Positions 45,173-54,333 of a stretch of DNA of 64,000 nucleotides are shown in pieces. Under the pieces are notes generated by a model. The model did no database searches. It was not told the origin of the DNA and saw nothing but the letters and a program-made list of their open reading frames with translations. The position numbers were made by a program, and so were the translations under genes. Position 1 is the first letter of the stretch; each line of letters opens with the position of its first letter. Origin of the DNA: Candidatus Thorarchaeota archaeon (GTDB lineage Archaea; Asgardarchaeota; Thorarchaeia; Thorarchaeales; Thorarchaeaceae); the NCBI GenBank assembly GCA_048882045.1, contig JBHLRZ010000003.1:32001-96000 (forward strand), read 5' to 3'.

Positions 45173-47344
45173 TTAGATCCAGTCGCCAGTTTCAAGTTTG
45201 CGTGGAAGATATACATCCGTCAGATACTCAAAGCTGTGACTGGCAAATGCCTGGATCTCAGCTTTCTCCTTGAGTTGTAACATAAGACGGAGATCCTTGA
45301 CCCACTCTTTGTTTTGTTGGACGAATGGCTCTTTCAGCATATCCTTCACTCGTTTCATGTCGGTCGGTTGCATGGGGATTCTGACTGATTTTGGAATATT
45401 ATATTCATCTAGATCTCGGCTTAATACTCCCAAGAGTTTGAGTTCAGGAGTTGCGATGAATGGTGACTCATAGCTAAGACGTTTACTACCTCTCAAGAAT
45501 ACAGAGTAGATATAGTGCCCATATGGATCAGAGTCGACCAAAGCAAAAGCGGGAATTTCTAGCTCCTTTACTAGCATCTTCAAAAATGCTCGCGTGGCAA
45601 TATCTCCAGAACCTTTTCCTGTCAGTACAATGCAGGGCTGACGATTCCAATACTTAGCCTCTGCAAGCCGCATCACTGCAGCATCTTTCTCTGAGAGGAT
45701 GATAAACTCAGCATCGCTTTCGACAATCTCGAGTTGATCCAGGAAGGGGGTCACAGCCCAACCGCCTGTACCCATTTTGGTAAGGTCGATGAGGTCCCCA
45801 CCATCTCTAATTGTGACTCGGCCCATTGCTGATCCTCGAGCTGATGCAACGACATGGATACTATCTCGAGTAGTCTGGATCATGGATGCGACATCTTCGA
45901 TTATTTTGTCACTGTATTTTTGCTCTCGAAAGAGATTGACATCACTATAGTAGACCTCTCGTTTCGTAGCATGAAGTTTAGACTTGAGCAAGTTGAATAC
46001 GATTTCCATGACCCTGGCCGTACGGGTCGCATCTACAACGGATGCAAGTGAATGGTACGGTCTAGAAATTGTCTTCATTCCTAATAGCAAAAGATCACGA
46101 ATCTCATCCCAAACGATATTGTCACCACTTCTGCTCGGGATATCAAAGGCAGGTCTGCCTGTCATCATTGTTTCATTCAGGATATCGAGTGCAGTATCAA
46201 CGATTCTTTCGGTAGTGTCATCAGCTGTGAGATTTACAACCTCGACTGTTTCGAGAAGGGGTGTAGCATCTTCAGGTAGTGGCGATTTCACTTTCTCCTC
46301 AGCAGTTGCCCATTTCTCCTTCATTTCCACAGCGAACTCAGCCACAGCTTTTGGAACGGGTAAACCTGATTCCTTCTTGATAGGTTTAGCCTTCTTTCTC
46401 TTAGGGGTAGGTTTTGCTTTCTTCACTGGTTTCTTTGGCGTAGGTGCCTTCTTCGGAGCTGCTTTCTTCTTTGACTTTTTGGCCGCAGGTTCCATAGGAA
46501 TCTCTTCCTCAACTGGTTGTTCCTTCTCTGGTGCTTCAACAGTCTTGGCAGATGCAACAACTTTGAGTGTTTCAGGTTCTCCAGTAATTCGTGCAACTTC
46601 CTGAGAATGAATTAGTTCCTTAGCTGCAACAACTATCTGCTCAGCTTTTGTAGAACTCAAACCGTCCACCTTATTTGCGATATTACTTGGACTTGCCCTA
46701 GCGATTCTTGCTACAGAATCATATCCTGCCCTCTCCATAGAGAGAGCGAGCTTTGAACCCAACCCAGGAACATCAGTAAGTGCAATCTTAGGAGGCAAAA
46801 CTTCTTCAGCTTCTTCAGAACCCTCCACTGGTGGTTCAGCTGTGGGGAGAGCCTTACTCTTATTCACCAAGTCCTTCGCAGCATCCACAAGGTTCTTTGC
46901 CCCTGTCGCGCTGAGACCCTCAACCTTCTTAGCGATTGAGGAAGACCTAGCACGGGATATCTTCTCCACCGTTTCGTATTTAGCTTTGATTAGCCTCTCC
47001 TCTAGCTTCGACCCTACGCCAGGGAGCTGCTTGAGACTGAATTCACTCTCTGGAACAGGAGGTTGTGCAATTTTCTTTTTAGCTTGTTTCTTCTTTGCTG
47101 GGGCTTTTTTCTGCGTGGCTGGCTTTTTCTTCTTGGGAGGTTCTTTCTTTTCTGGAGTCTTCTTGGTTGTCTTCTTCTTTGGTTTTGCTGAGGACTTCTT
47201 CTTGCTCGAATCTTTCTTCGGTGTTTTTTTAGCAGTCTTCTTGGTTGTCTTCTTGGTTGTCTTCTTCTTTTTGTCCTCGCCAAGTACCTCTCCAAGTGTT
47301 GCCTGAACAGTTTCAGGCTTCTTCTTCGACTTCTTGCGGCTCAT
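45173..47344 (-). CDS. top6A: DNA topoisomerase VI subunit A (Spo11 homologue) with a long Lys-rich/HhH N-terminal extension
   Basis: TKREVYY (catalytic Tyr), EKDA, TGKG, DSDPYG and KAEIQA motifs. Confidence 0.93.
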   Translation of the reverse strand: MSRKKSKKKPETVQATLGEVLGEDKKKKTTKKTTKKTAKKTPKKDSSKKKSSAKPKKKTTKKTPEKKEPPKKKKPATQKKAPAKKKQAKKKIAQPPVPESEFSLKQLPGVGSKLEERLIKAKYETVEKISRARSSSIAKKVEGLSATGAKNLVDAAKDLVNKSKALPTAEPPVEGSEEAEEVLPPKIALTDVPGLGSKLALSMERAGYDSVARIARASPSNIANKVDGLSSTKAEQIVVAAKELIHSQEVARITGEPETLKVVASAKTVEAPEKEQPVEEEIPMEPAAKKSKKKAAPKKAPTPKKPVKKAKPTPKRKKAKPIKKESGLPVPKAVAEFAVEMKEKWATAEEKVKSPLPEDATPLLETVEVVNLTADDTTERIVDTALDILNETMMTGRPAFDIPSRSGDNIVWDEIRDLLLLGMKTISRPYHSLASVVDATRTARVMEIVFNLLKSKLHATKREVYYSDVNLFREQKYSDKIIEDVASMIQTTRDSIHVVASARGSAMGRVTIRDGGDLIDLTKMGTGGWAVTPFLDQLEIVESDAEFIILSEKDAAVMRLAEAKYWNRQPCIVLTGKGSGDIATRAFLKMLVKELEIPAFALVDSDPYGHYIYSVFLRGSKRLSYESPFIATPELKLLGVLSRDLDEYNIPKSVRIPMQPTDMKRVKDMLKEPFVQQNKEWVKDLRLMLQLKEKAEIQAFASHSFEYLTDVYLPRKLETGDWI

Positions 47345-49365
47345 TCGCTCTCGCCTCCTTCTGCTGCAACTTCTTCTTCATCATCAAGGGAGATATCAGC
47401 CACAAGATCAGAACCGACTGTATCTCTCTCAGTTTCTTCTTGGTCTGCTTGAGTTTCAAACCCAGTTATCGAATCTCTCAGTCTGCTAGCGATTGTTTCA
47501 GCATCGAACTTGGGTTTTTTATGACCATCATTGACAATCGCAACAAGACTCTGAGCGAATTGATCTGCGTACATGGCGAGAATTCCTGCTCGTTTTGCCT
47601 TTCTCTGAGCAGTTTCACGTCTTGTGATGAATCGTCTGAATCGTCTTCCAGCATCTTCAAGTGCTAGTTTGATTTCACGGAGTAAGACTTCGTCTTCAGC
47701 AAGGGCTTGCTTACTCTGTCCTTTGAACATGACGTGGACATAGGCTCCTGCAACATGAATGAAGACCATTATTGGTCCACGTGGAATTCCATTGTCGAAA
47801 GTTGCTACCTTGTAGTTTTTCCAGTTGACAGATGCAGTTGCTTTCCAAGTTGCACAGTCACTGTTATCTCTCAATTTTGGTACACGATTAACAAAACGCC
47901 AGAGAACCATTGGAGCAGAGCTTGCAGGTTTGATCTCTCCTCCATAAGCGATACAGACCTCGACTGCAAACGAGAGACCCTTTCCTGATGTTGGTTTTCG
48001 AGTCACAGCTGTTGCAAAGTCGGGTTTGTAAGCCATTTTGATTGTCTGCTCGAAGACCTCCTCACCAACAGGGACCACTGTGTCTGTAGGTGGAGCGATA
48101 TAGTCCTCATTTGAGAATGAGCGATATAACAGTTCGACTTCTGTCTTGGAAAGTGAATCAGTCGGTGTACTCATTTTTAGATCATCGAGATGACGTCTTC
48201 TGAGATCTTTGCTAGCATTCGAAACAATTGTCTTTGCCTTATTAGAACTCAATCTGCAGAATGCCTTTGTAAGGAATCCTCTCAGATCAGACTCTCGAGT
48301 TTCACGAAGCAAGTCTTGGAACTCACCAATTCTGATGCTTGCAGGATGAGGTTGCGCGTACTTTGGTTCCTCAGGGAACTGATTCACCTTTCTTGGGAAG
48401 ATGTTGACTTGTCCATATGGATCGATGAATATGATGGTGACATGGGAATTTAGAAGGGAGGCCATCTCACAATAGATATCAGCATACCCCCTTCTGTATT
48501 GAATATTGAGATAATAGAGCTTAATGAATGTACCATGATGGAACGGGAGATCCATGTCAACTGGACCACCAACATGGTCCTTTGTGTTTGCTGTGGTTGT
48601 GTAGAAGTTAGTAACAGTAGCCGCGTCTGAGTTGAATCGTTTTGAAATAGTGAATATCGGTTTACCAGTTGTGTTCTGAGCGTCGCTGAATGCAGATGGC
48701 GCTCCAAATCCCTGGCTACCTCTAGTTTGTCGAAGTTTCTCGGATTTACTTGAGGCGAGATAAATCCCAAATTTCTCTAGGTCTCTGGCAATCATTCCAA
48801 CTCCAGTATCGAAGCATGAGAACTCATACACCTTGAAGCCTTCTTCATCATCTATCGGGACTAGGTCCGGCATCTGGACCTCCTTCAGTTCAATGACCAC
48901 TAAGGGTTCACGCTTGGTCAATAGAGGACGAAGCGGAGCAACAAACTTCCGGAACTCAGTTATTCCGTCATCTATCGTTTCTTTGCGTCGTGGAGGAATT
49001 TCAACCTCTTTACCAGCCTTGACATCCCGTTCTAGTTGCTTACTTAGTGCTATAGTATCGATCTGACCCTCTTGGAGTTTTGCGCGTACTTCTTCGACGA
49101 CTGCAGGATCAAGTTGGTCCTGTAGACGAGGTCGTCTGCTAGCCTTCCACCACCAGCTCTCCAAGGCATCAATAGCATTGTCAAGAAACTCGATTGCATA
49201 TTGCGTATGTTTATTCAGTCCAGTTTCAAAACCCACTAGTTGAGTTCTCTTTCTCATGAATTTGGCTATCGTACCCTGCTTGATGTCTCCTGTATCTGTT
49301 CTAGTGGGAGTCGGTGCAGGTTGCGCCTTCTTGGGTGGTTTCTTCGATTTCTTCTTTGAGCTCAA
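47341..49365 (-). CDS. top6B: DNA topoisomerase VI subunit B
   Basis: GHKL motifs EFLDNAIDA, DTGVGM and RGSQGFG, plus PHP, RFVNRVP and GQSKQA. Confidence 0.93.
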   Translation of the reverse strand: MSSKKKSKKPPKKAQPAPTPTRTDTGDIKQGTIAKFMRKRTQLVGFETGLNKHTQYAIEFLDNAIDALESWWWKASRRPRLQDQLDPAVVEEVRAKLQEGQIDTIALSKQLERDVKAGKEVEIPPRRKETIDDGITEFRKFVAPLRPLLTKREPLVVIELKEVQMPDLVPIDDEEGFKVYEFSCFDTGVGMIARDLEKFGIYLASSKSEKLRQTRGSQGFGAPSAFSDAQNTTGKPIFTISKRFNSDAATVTNFYTTTANTKDHVGGPVDMDLPFHHGTFIKLYYLNIQYRRGYADIYCEMASLLNSHVTIIFIDPYGQVNIFPRKVNQFPEEPKYAQPHPASIRIGEFQDLLRETRESDLRGFLTKAFCRLSSNKAKTIVSNASKDLRRRHLDDLKMSTPTDSLSKTEVELLYRSFSNEDYIAPPTDTVVPVGEEVFEQTIKMAYKPDFATAVTRKPTSGKGLSFAVEVCIAYGGEIKPASSAPMVLWRFVNRVPKLRDNSDCATWKATASVNWKNYKVATFDNGIPRGPIMVFIHVAGAYVHVMFKGQSKQALAEDEVLLREIKLALEDAGRRFRRFITRRETAQRKAKRAGILAMYADQFAQSLVAIVNDGHKKPKFDAETIASRLRDSITGFETQADQEETERDTVGSDLVADISLDDEEEVAAEGGESE

Positions 49366-51311: not shown

Positions 51312-52793
51312 TTACTCTTCAATAGCTACCTCTTCAGCAATCTCAGGAGATGCTTGTGATGCAGCTCCATTGCCCCAGGTTTCCTCTTCAAGGACAGGAC
51401 GCTCTTGGTGGAGACCGTTCCTTATCAGAAAAACTCCACCCAATGATACTAGACCACATAGGGCAAGGGTCAGGGGAAAGCCGATGACAGGGATAGCTAC
51501 AATCCAACCGAATAGTGCAATCTGAGGAATTGCGAACAAGGTGGCAATTGTTGGAGATAGTGAATACATCGAATTCCTGATACGATTCGGAATGACATCG
51601 AGTAACACACGCTGCGTCAAAATCTCTGCGAACCCTCCAAAGAAACTCGTTGCCACAAAGGTGGAGAAGATGATAATTATCGGGAGTAAGTTCTCAATAG
51701 GTAGTGTCAGAATAGCAATTTCTGTGAAGGGCCAATAGACCACAAGGGTGTTTCCATCAGGGGGTGCCGGTGGAAGAATCCACATTATCAGTGCAAAGAC
51801 CCAGAAGAACACAAATCCACAGGTCTGAAGCAAGCGAAACCGTGGAATCCACTTCTTTGGCTCAAATCGACGACTCCACACTCCAGATCGTTCCTGTGCT
51901 ATAACTCCGGGCAGAAATAGTGTTGTTCTGAAACTTGCTACTGCAACATCTGTTATTAGGTAGAGGAAATACATTGGGAACAGAATTAGATTGCCCCAGA
52001 CCAAGATGCTGCTTGTGGCGAGCATTCCACCGACAACGATATTCCTTACAAATCTGTGCTTGAATAGGAAACTCACTCCACCCTTCAATATGGATACGTA
52101 CTCACTCATCTCAGGACGCCCGGTACGCTGCTCCTCGACTTCTGGAAAGTCCCTGACTAACCTGAATACGAGTATTGCAAGAAACAGTGCGAGAATGGCC
52201 TGCAATTGAAACACCCATGGTCTTGAGAATACCACTGCTAAGATCCCGCCAGGAATCAGACTGGCTGTCGCAAAGATCTGCATCATCATTCCCATTCGAC
52301 CCCAGAAGACACCATACTGCTTGCGGTCAGTGTCGCCCGGCATAGCAACGCGATAATTGTTGTCGAACCATGCTCCCCAGGCTCCACTCTGCTGAGACTG
52401 CGCAAAGCCCTGAATGGCATAGACAGCCATGAGATAGAAGAATGGAGTTTCTGTTGTGACAAAAGAAACCATGAAGAAAGAAATGGCATAGGAAACAGAG
52501 GCAGATGCCACGATGTATCTCTGTCCAATCCAATCACCGACTGCCCCTGTCGGATAGTCCAAAAGAATCTGGACCACCATCTGGACCACGACAAGGGTGC
52601 CTACAAGACCCATCCCTTGAAGGTACATTCCTGGTCCACCTCCCAATGCCTCAGCAACAAAGATGACATAGAAAGTGGTCGATAGCACAAAGGTAACATT
52701 AGCCAGCGGTCCGAGCATCGCCATTATAGTTGCCAGACGGAGAACCTTTTCATTGGCGTCTGGCAGACCAAGAAAGGCTTTCATTCTACTCAT
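51312..52793 (-). CDS. MFS transporter (exporter-like)
   Basis: DYPTGAVGDWIGQR (motif A) and IPNRIRNSMYSL; about 12 TM helices. Confidence 0.85.
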   Translation of the reverse strand: MSRMKAFLGLPDANEKVLRLATIMAMLGPLANVTFVLSTTFYVIFVAEALGGGPGMYLQGMGLVGTLVVVQMVVQILLDYPTGAVGDWIGQRYIVASASVSYAISFFMVSFVTTETPFFYLMAVYAIQGFAQSQQSGAWGAWFDNNYRVAMPGDTDRKQYGVFWGRMGMMMQIFATASLIPGGILAVVFSRPWVFQLQAILALFLAILVFRLVRDFPEVEEQRTGRPEMSEYVSILKGGVSFLFKHRFVRNIVVGGMLATSSILVWGNLILFPMYFLYLITDVAVASFRTTLFLPGVIAQERSGVWSRRFEPKKWIPRFRLLQTCGFVFFWVFALIMWILPPAPPDGNTLVVYWPFTEIAILTLPIENLLPIIIIFSTFVATSFFGGFAEILTQRVLLDVIPNRIRNSMYSLSPTIATLFAIPQIALFGWIVAIPVIGFPLTLALCGLVSLGGVFLIRNGLHQERPVLEEETWGNGAASQASPEIAEEVAIEE

Positions 52794-52841: not shown

Positions 52842-52877
52842 GCAGTGACCCCCGGATCACACATCGAGGGCCACTGC
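52842..52877 (-). promoter_or_regulatory. Strong hairpin in the MFS 5' leader
   Basis: Minus-strand GCAGUGGCCCUCGAU pairs with AUCCGGGGGUCACUGC (about 15 bp, two G-U pairs, one bulge). Confidence 0.55.
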
Positions 52878-52926
52878 GGAGATAGGAGATTTGTCCGGTT
52901 AACTTTGATATGAAAGCATCAATGTT

Positions 52927-53046
52927 CTATCGTGGCAATGTGGTCCCTGCGTTGCAGAGCGCTCCGAATGACTGGACCATTACAGACCTGTTCTCAACTG
53001 TCAAGCAGGGCTTGTTCGTTGCAGGTGTTGATAAAGCAGTCATCAT
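52927..53046 (-). CDS. Small peptide P3 / possible leader uORF, 39 aa: MMTALSTPATNKPCLTVENRSVMVQSFGALCNAGTTLPR
   Basis: Preceded by GGTGAAACA-ATG and a TTTATA box about 65 nt upstream; start context shared with P1 and P2. Confidence 0.5.
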   Translation of the reverse strand: MMTALSTPATNKPCLTVENRSVMVQSFGALCNAGTTLPR

Positions 53047-53199
53047 TGTTTCACCACACTTCCATTTTTTGGTTTGTAGAACACACCATTATATCATTTT
53101 GGTTTCATATAAACATTTACAACAGCGTAATAATTTGTCGAATGTACTATTTTGCTTGTAATTCGGACCAATTACATTGCCCAAGTACATTGAACAAGA

Positions 53200-53304
53200 T
53201 TACCTCCTGTAGATGTATGCATGAGTCAGCGCATCTGTACGCGGGAAGTCGTGGATACGCTTGATTCTTAGAGCAGACCAGTTGTTGTTCTTTGATAGAG
53301 CCAT
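53200..53304 (-). CDS. Small basic peptide P2, 34 aa: MALSKNNNWSALRIKRIHDFPRTDALTHAYIYRR
   Basis: Hand-translated; paralogous to P1; start context TTGTGAAACATT-ATG. Confidence 0.7.
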   Translation of the reverse strand: MALSKNNNWSALRIKRIHDFPRTDALTHAYIYRR

Positions 53305-53454
53305 AATGTTTCACAACCTTCTATAGGTTGGTCACATGATATGCTGTTTCTGAGACAAACTGACCATTTCTGTGACCACTTGGTGACCAGTCCTCGATCA
53401 CTCCAGGAGTGGCAGAGAGCCAGTTTATCAGTCGTTCAGTCTTATGCATTCTAT

Positions 53455-53556
53455 TCACCTACGGTACTGATAGGCATATGTGAGGGCTTCAGTCGAGACC
53501 TTAACCTTCTCGTTCTTCAGTACAGATGTGTTTCGTGAGTTCTTACTTAGAGCCAT
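53455..53556 (-). CDS. Small basic peptide P1, 33 aa: MALSKNSRNTSVLKNEKVKVSTEALTYAYQYRR
   Basis: Hand-translated; paralogous to P2; start context TTGTGAAACATC-ATG with a TATATA box near 53590. Confidence 0.7.
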   Translation of the reverse strand: MALSKNSRNTSVLKNEKVKVSTEALTYAYQYRR

Positions 53557-53706
53557 GATGTTTCACAAGAAATACTGTCCATTTTTACTATATATAGCGG
53601 AGCCACTTGTCAGGGTCACAGAAGGGAGTCACATATTGTTACTACTCCATGTCGACATAGACAAGCATATCAAGGGTAGGCAGGGTGCCAAAAAGCGTGA
53701 TTAGAC

Positions 53707-54333
53707 ATGTCTGATGGCGATTCCACTCAGCAACTGATAGAACACTTTTCAGCTTTTACAGAGCAGGAACTAGTGAGGAAGTTTGGTGAGAGAGGGATGC
53801 CCATGTTCAGGCTGTTTCAACGACAGTTCAAGATTCACTACAACAACTATGAGCATATGCTACCAAACCAACTAGCAAAGAAACACGGGATGAACTCGTT
53901 GTTTGTTATGGCCATGGACGATGTCATGTGTGAGGTAAGGGCCTCCTTCTCAGAGCTCAAGGAAACAGTCGTATCGATCTATATAGCAATGATGAGGGAC
54001 TATTTCTCAACAGAATCGGAAAAACTCAAACAGAGTGAGGACCCGTGGACGGCTTTCGTTGACTGGGCTCGGAAAGGAAACGAAGCCAACTACATTAATG
54101 ACTACTTTCAACTCAAGGAAGTAGACCAAGAAACTGGATGTTATGGATTTGACATTAACAGATGTCTATATTTTGACATTCTGAAGGAGGCTGGGAAACC
54201 TGAGTTAGGACCTATCCTCTGTGAATACGATCAAATCTTCATGGACTACGTAGGGGACTGGATTAATTTTACTCGTCGTGAAACCATCGCCACAGGTGAC
54301 TCTCGGTGCAATTTTAGGTATTGTAAGGTTTAG
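53707..54333 (+). CDS. L-2-amino-thiazoline-4-carboxylic acid hydrolase-like (V4R-fold) protein
   Basis: FDINRCLY...PELGPILCEYD...FTRRETIATGDSRCNFRY. Confidence 0.8.
   Translation: MSDGDSTQQLIEHFSAFTEQELVRKFGERGMPMFRLFQRQFKIHYNNYEHMLPNQLAKKHGMNSLFVMAMDDVMCEVRASFSELKETVVSIYIAMMRDYFSTESEKLKQSEDPWTAFVDWARKGNEANYINDYFQLKEVDQETGCYGFDINRCLYFDILKEAGKPELGPILCEYDQIFMDYVGDWINFTRRETIATGDSRCNFRYCKV

Follow-up and report, generated by a model that had tools for sequence, protein, structure and literature searches.

The question raised by this locus is what is encoded in the 913 nt that separate, in a Candidatus Thorarchaeota archaeon, the start of an MFS_1 transporter gene (51312..52793, minus strand, 493 aa, start at 52793) from a plus-strand V4R/ATC-hydrolase-like gene (53707..54333). 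The window is the whole 64,000-nt stretch of DNA that was analysed, and all positions refer to it. An earlier note, made from the letters alone, had placed three short minus-strand ORFs in this gap, and all of them were found again: P1, or peptide A (53455..53556, 33 aa), P2, or peptide C (53200..53304, 34 aa), and P3, or ORF F (52927..53046, 39 aa, with two conserved Cys). Their start context had also been given correctly, as GTGAAACA followed by 2, 2 and 0 nt and ATG for P1, P2 and P3, respectively.

The local alignment of P1 with P2 scores 66, which ranks third among the 20,659 pairs of neighbouring small ORFs in the genome, and their paralogy is therefore far beyond chance. As for P3, its alignment with P1 scores 20, a value reached by 19% of these pairs, and that with P2 scores 12, hence a direct likeness of P3 is not beyond chance. 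The top of this ranking is held by two other near-identical tandem pairs on contig 5 of the genome; one Cys-containing 36-aa pair scores 166.

On sequence grounds, P1 and P2 are real genes of a microprotein family confined to Thorarchaeota. A profile HMM found nine clear copies in six loci of this genome and nothing else below E 0.4, and at least two further diverged ORFs lie within the same trains. A search in Asgard genomes, which had been proposed as a check, returned homologues in 64/65 genomes of the Thorarchaeota family (all 16 genera, 1-14 matches per genome) and no match among 185 other Asgard genomes searched with the profile; in the single profile-negative Thorarchaeota genome, a diverged member adjoins the linked regulator described below. 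In a set of 1.84 billion proteins the matches were small members only, and a 1,927-aa top match was rejected as a repeat artefact. Pfam, NCBIfam, PHROGs, PADLOC, the PDB and the ESM Atlas gave no family match, and a literature search found no description of the family. What escapes standard annotation here is a near-universal, multi-copy gene family of an Asgard class. One more subfamily, Y, is also diverged and is marked by its tail of Tyr-Tyr-x-Tyr (L006:4887-4994; upstream ORFs of L020 and L035; L135); it precedes stand-alone members and, in one genus, the MFS gene. Another basic ORF of 33 aa (L006:5271-5372, minus strand), which the family profile misses, is convergent with the member on contig 52 and downstream of a radical SAM gene.

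What stays constant in 158 distinct members is S-T-x-A-[ILV]-x-x-A-Y, then Arg, and not the aromatic-x-aromatic-x-aromatic C-terminus that had been taken as the conserved part. The invariant Ala and the invariant Thr each use all four of their codons among these members. Over this core, dN/dS is 0.145 for P1 (20 orthologues), 0.176 for P2 and 0.163 for the third positional class at the locus, against 0.45-0.65 in the middle of the peptides and 0.048 in the MFS gene, all values being pooled pairwise estimates from related sequences with synonymous sites near saturation. The class that has no coupled ORF and carries a terminator-like hairpin gives 0.147 over the core and 0.158 over the N-terminus. 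Selection at the protein level, proposed earlier from synonymous codon differences between P1 and P2, is thus upheld by the core values of P1 and P2 (0.15-0.18); the differences cited for it are correct, but five of the first six codons are identical in the two ORFs.

The peptides are 22-38 aa long, with a charge of +2 to +9 (typically +5) and almost no Cys or Trp, and they are hydrophilic (median GRAVY -0.73, best 15-residue hydropathy 0.11, mean helical moment 0.21). For P1, AlphaFold predicts a helix over residues 22-31 with pLDDT of about 90, and the remaining basic arm is unstructured. The reading that we prefer, at a probability of roughly 0.45, is that P1 and P2 are intracellular microproteins that act in trans, docking by their helix within an efflux/acetylation stress regulon in the manner of ArmR. 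Precisely, in each peptide a disordered Lys/Arg-rich N-terminal arm would lead into a single short helix, which is conserved and by which the peptide would dock on a partner protein. The single predicted helix, the hydrophilic +5 composition with hardly any Cys or Trp, and the strength of core selection in the three positional classes (0.145-0.176) and in the uncoupled one all speak for it. Among the readings offered by the earlier note, that of regulatory peptides, given there as an alternative, fits best.

The surroundings of the ORFs were defined from 23 orthologous MFS loci, at which the order is Box1 promoter, peptide A (P1), Box3, peptide C (P2), peptide D, element E, ORF F (P3), a pyrimidine tract with a hairpin, and the MFS gene. 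Three family peptides are present in 19/23 of these loci; in this genome peptide D, which follows P2, has been lost, and P2 still ends in AGGAGG-stop with its coupled partner deleted. The Box1 promoter (53588..53645, minus strand) is made of a GTCACA-N3-TGTGAC palindrome, GTGAC repeats at a 13-bp period and a TATA box at 53588-53596; its pattern has eight matches in the genome versus none in a shuffled genome, and none in viral contigs. The V4R/ATC-hydrolase-like gene diverges from Box1 and is kept as a neighbour in 18 loci (17 of this genus and one of another), while conservation of the DUF362 neighbour at family loci was not borne out.

Box3, or element B (53329..53389, minus strand), carries TGNNCA units at offsets 0, 11, 23, (33) and 55. 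Since the orientation of the units flips between genera, the 11-bp phasing is kept and no significant covariation supports an RNA stem, we read it as DNA and infer a helically phased operator array. Element E (53071..53169, minus strand) looks like a second promoter, with a degenerate palindrome at 53154-53169, a TATA-like sequence at 53106-53115 and Box2 at 53071-53087, the last being a GGTTTG-N5-CAAACC-type palindrome that ranks second among such sites genome-wide (24.8 bits). By a strict pattern, element E is found in 18/23 orthologues. Because it holds both a second TATA and the Box2 palindrome, P3 and the MFS gene are probably on a transcript of their own: Box1 would drive P1 and P2 from a start near 53565, and Box2 a second transcript, beginning near 53085, with P3, the hairpin and the MFS gene. 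A sigma-70 promoter scan was uninformative, the host being an archaeon.

In the MFS leader (52842..52888, minus strand) the pyrimidine tract occupies 52878-52888 and the RNA hairpin 52842-52877. The hairpin has 13 bp, 97.6% paired, and a conserved GUGUGAU loop; five of its pairs show two-sided changes (0/500 shuffles), the folding z is -3.9, and no credible Rfam match was obtained. A 5′ stem that would mask the peptide A start was rejected, since RNAalifold, given 31 sequences, predicted no pair.

With these elements in place, it can be asked whether the ORFs arise as a side effect of conserved regulatory DNA or RNA and encode no functional protein. This does hold for two other ORFs of the gap (dN/dS 0.75-0.93). 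The first, of 42 codons (53321..53449, minus strand), is coupled to the stop of P1 and overlies Box3; its dN/dS is 0.75, and 1.24 over Box3, three orthologues carry a 1-nt deletion in it, and it is probably a passenger because the constraint sits at the nucleotide level. The second overlies element E and has a dN/dS of 0.93. Codons 2-6 of peptide A are also conserved as nucleotides (pS 0.06). For P1, P2 and P3, however, the reading is largely refuted, and we consider it extremely improbable, given that the invariant Ala and Thr of the family run through every available codon and that the core dN/dS is 0.15.

P3 needs separate treatment. It was found in 14/28 genomes of this genus and in none of the other genera, always at the MFS locus, where it is the first ORF behind the second promoter, and it is missing from 8/23 of the orthologous cassettes. 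Its dN/dS over 14 orthologues is 0.245. The earlier note had seen in it a diverged member of the family. Compared directly, the two are alike only at the level of chance (at most 2 HMM bits against the family model, hhalign probability 4-6%), and the Tyr/Arg tail is gone and two Cys have been gained; a relationship becomes plausible through intermediates, three of which score 18, 14 and 7 bits with the P3 model and 9, 1 and 21 bits with the family model. The ORFs in the slot after Box3 in other Thorarchaeota grade, in the same register, from clear members to P3-like ones, and in another genus the slot behind Box2 holds a true family peptide. On balance we lean towards a descent of P3 from the P1/P2 family. 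At loci L139 and L263 of another genus, a 39-aa CxxC ORF overlaps the MFS start in the same position as P3.

Both within and beyond this locus, the peptides come in trains. In 128/156 members the last codons and the stop form a ribosome-binding site, with a start codon 4-9 nt further on, and the terminal codon is AGG in 118/156, versus 51/326 of internal Arg codons. Since the stop doubles as the next ribosome-binding site, the conservation of the RR-stop end is partly of nucleotide level; in members without this overlap, Arg is still present in the last two positions in 17/20. A train ends in an MFS gene, in a small family that we call Z, or in a hairpin. An unbiased census covered 81 Box1 promoters from GTDB, and 74 of them are followed by a family peptide at no more than 200 nt. 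An MFS gene comes at the end of 24 of these 74 arrays and Z at the end of 28, and behind 24 there is no long gene on the same strand. The arrays that end without a long gene, together with the equally strong selection on the uncoupled hairpin class, indicate that at many loci the peptides are themselves the end products. As for the link to the MFS gene that had been drawn from their adjacency, co-regulation is retained, and pairing is not: fewer than a third of the main-promoter arrays (24/74) reach an MFS gene, and where two other genera have orthologues of the MFS gene, Box2 and Box3 are retained and family peptides are missing.

The same architecture might instead belong to leader peptides that act in cis, whose nascent core, while in the exit tunnel, would sense either translation stress or a small molecule and would gate re-initiation on the next ORF, be it a peptide, Z or the MFS gene. 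The stop/ribosome-binding-site overlap fits such a role too, conservation is C-terminal (the invariant Ala precedes the stop by 9-11 residues in 152/158 members), and one type of MFS gene starts only 5 nt behind the last peptide; short intergenic distances permit coupling in archaea (PMC10666635). P3, followed by an anti-SD-like tract and the covarying hairpin, has the look of an attenuator, and may be the most attenuator-like part of the cassette. In these respects (small ORFs ahead of an efflux gene, a conserved C-terminus, coupling through ribosome-binding sites, a pre-pump hairpin in the P3 region) the locus resembles ErmCL and the TnaC leader. Termination-arrest peptides such as TnaC have a fixed spacing, whereas here the distance from core to stop varies from 9 to 11, the peptides are in tandem, and they are selected as strongly where uncoupled and hairpin-terminated. 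Moreover, many trains lead to no large gene at all, the MFS orthologues without peptides stand under the same boxes, and in this genome P2 has lost its coupled partner and the MFS gene has its own promoter. We therefore hold a cis role to be unlikely. Leader peptides can also act in trans, as peTrpL does (PMC7298713).

Family Z consists of 29-40-aa ORFs with an acidic C-terminal motif that ends in E-A-T (e.g. L005:6671-6781 and L007:7226-7339, on contigs 34 and 12). It is last in many trains, followed by a U-rich tract, occurs in at least six genera and has a dN/dS of 0.20 over its last 11 codons. At 17/22 junctions, 12 of them through TAG, Z is in frame with the preceding peptide (e.g. L007:7216-7226), versus 8/51 of the peptide-peptide junctions. 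The stops at the peptide-Z junctions vary, five junctions are out of frame and no tRNA-Pyl is among the 17 tRNAs called; the in-frame excess is possibly inherited spacing only. Peptide-Z fusion proteins that appeared in the 1.84-billion set were rejected as gene-caller read-throughs with TAG=Q.

If the peptides are end products, they could also leave the cell. Bioactive peptides that are exported without a leader, whether as antimicrobials or as signals, and for which the MFS protein would be the exporter and the GNAT proteins of the regulon (see below) the self-protection, would account for cationic, multi-copy ORFs of this length with a variable middle and no leader, for the operators that MFS and GNAT genes share with the peptides, and for a second MFS type that resembles the DHA3/Mef/EntS exporters. 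Tandem paralogous, cationic, leaderless ORFs of about 30 aa are known from the aureocin A70 type, and together with microcin C this type also offers parallels for a transporter and an acetyltransferase in the regulon. The family differs from both in that it is not hydrophobic and that its cassette has no ABC exporter, immunity gene or ThiF enzyme. Its members have neither a membrane-spanning nor a strongly amphipathic stretch, two-thirds of the arrays have no transporter, no ABC exporter recurs, and the large GNAT is also present in peptide-less Asgards and in bacteria. Bacteriocin loci have a patchy distribution, whereas this family is inherited vertically and is near-universal throughout one taxonomic family, and its Box1 promoter is not in viral contigs. 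In our judgement export is an improbable role, about on a par with the cis role.

Much less probable still is the RiPP-precursor reading of the earlier note, considered here in the form of peptides modified in trans, for instance by Tyr cross-linking through an unlinked PqqD-radical SAM/SPASM enzyme. The core is rich in Ser/Thr and Tyr, and such an enzyme is present in 28/37 Thorarchaeota genomes. It was not found in the other 9/37 genomes, all of them peptide-bearing and some 97-98% complete, it has relatives in Asgards in which the peptides were not found, and in 20 loci its gene has neither boxes nor peptides nearby. No maturase recurs among the neighbours of about 90 family loci, YcaO was not found in this genome (93% complete), and it is this missing linkage that makes the reading unlikely. 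The peptides show no clear leader/core split; their conserved C-terminal helix might serve as a follower to the variable middle, but this middle is poly-basic and has no modifiable residue that is conserved. Two individual candidates for a maturase were rejected: the radical SAM protein beside the contig-52 copy, present at one locus only, and the large GNAT, whose model (GNAT plus beta-sandwich) has only generic beta-sandwich fold matches with TM of at most 0.15 and no known maturase match. The PqqD-radical SAM/SPASM fusion itself (L145:1381-2808, contig 3:143816-145246) is 67-89% identical across most Thorarchaeota; with no precursor found nearby, it is a candidate orphan maturase.

The preferred reading, docking microproteins that act in trans, requires a partner, and the most conserved family locus points to a candidate. 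At this locus the peptides are divergent from a single-copy PadR/ArsR-like wHTH regulator (250 aa, contig 12:57947-58696 in this genome), which is present in 35/37 Thorarchaeota and in 2/113 other Asgards, a distribution that goes with that of the family. Divergent family peptides adjoin the regulator in 28/30 loci and Box2 is present in 27/30, and the two homologues outside Thorarchaeota have neither peptides nor Box2. Because Box2 and the peptides flank the regulator across loci and are absent at the outside homologues, it is likely the factor that binds Box2. Its profile has a weak full-length match to PH1932 of Pyrococcus horikoshii (PDB 1ULY; E 0.007, below curated cut-offs), which likewise combines an ArsR/PadR-like wHTH with a helical C-terminal domain. 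To our knowledge, PH1932 has no known ligand. A complex prediction for the regulator dimer with two copies of P1 scored 0.01 and was counted neither for nor against binding. Just past the linked regulator, two profilin-like genes are found in several genera (L007:5110-5939).

The operators extend beyond the peptides. Further Box1 sites of this genome lie in front of a 1,106-aa GNAT, a paralogous MFS gene, a bactofilin-like protein and a membrane protein, and further Box2 sites in front of a paralogue of this GNAT (1,110 aa) and of two paired 312-aa genes that match no family. The links of boxes to MFS, bactofilin, membrane protein and GNAT genes recur in relatives, those to GNATs mainly within this genus (Box2 at the GNAT: 4/6 orthologues in this genus, 0/4 in others). 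MFS genes of four genera stand behind Boxes 1-3, as do, mainly in this genus, the two paralogous GNATs of about 1,100 aa, and Box3 fronts MFS and 1,100-aa GNAT genes that have no peptides. These GNATs (L106:2084-5401 and L104:1293-4622) have GNAT, Ig-like and beta-sandwich domains and are widespread in Asgards, including peptide-less ones, and in some bacteria; the Atlas gave CylE as a weak lead (0.86). A gene that, judged by eye, looks like a TldD/PmbA peptidase (L134:1536-2933, G042) has a Box2 palindrome upstream, as a single instance. Three operators can be defined, a regulator can be proposed, and pumps and acetyltransferases share the control, which makes this one of very few Asgard regulons that can be reconstructed.

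In the proposed mechanism, two or three Thorarchaeota transcription factors would run the promoters of the trains and also those of MFS pumps and GNAT acetyltransferases, presumably under stress, and the peptides would be translated in series through the overlap of each stop with the next ribosome-binding site. Their likeliest docking partner would be the wHTH regulator, with feedback like that of ArmR on MexR; the MFS pump is a second candidate. The boxes common to MFS genes and large GNATs, the arrays with no long gene behind them or with Z at their end, and the regulator's linkage to peptides and Box2 are consistent with this. On the other side, gene neighbourhood is a sign of co-regulation and not of binding, a single regulator would not need as many as 14 copies per genome that vary in their middle, and the co-regulation of GNATs is mostly limited to this genus. 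A more elaborate form, which we regard as rather doubtful, is a control circuit in which the paralogous basic microproteins and the acidic-tailed Z, made in fixed ratios, would be interchangeable ligands or antagonists of the wHTH protein and so set the output of efflux and acetylation. Should the peptides be ligands of the regulator, they would be an archaeal example of signalling by short linear motifs of microproteins.

Two further kinds of known small proteins are close to this. AcrZ on AcrB, SgrT and MgtS are small-protein modulators co-regulated with transporters, AcrZ and MgtS being membrane helices. Like them, the family peptides are below 50 aa and would share a stress regulon with a transporter; unlike AcrZ and MgtS, they are hydrophilic and most of their arrays have no adjoining transporter. 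The nearer precedent is ArmR of Pseudomonas aeruginosa, a 53-aa peptide whose C-terminal part binds a MarR-type repressor of an efflux operon (PMC6018408). Both systems have a small protein with a functional C-terminal part, which is associated with efflux genes and a regulator of the winged-helix type. ArmR is a single gene, whereas the present family has 1-14 paralogues, each 22-38 aa long, in coupled trains that they share with Z; the two have no sequence likeness, and the link to the regulator is genetic in our case, with binding only proposed. Elsewhere in the window (45173-49365), genes resembling topoisomerase VI subunits A and B were noted; the A-like subunit has, as read by eye, a long Lys-rich N-terminal extension with helix-hairpin-helix-like repeats.
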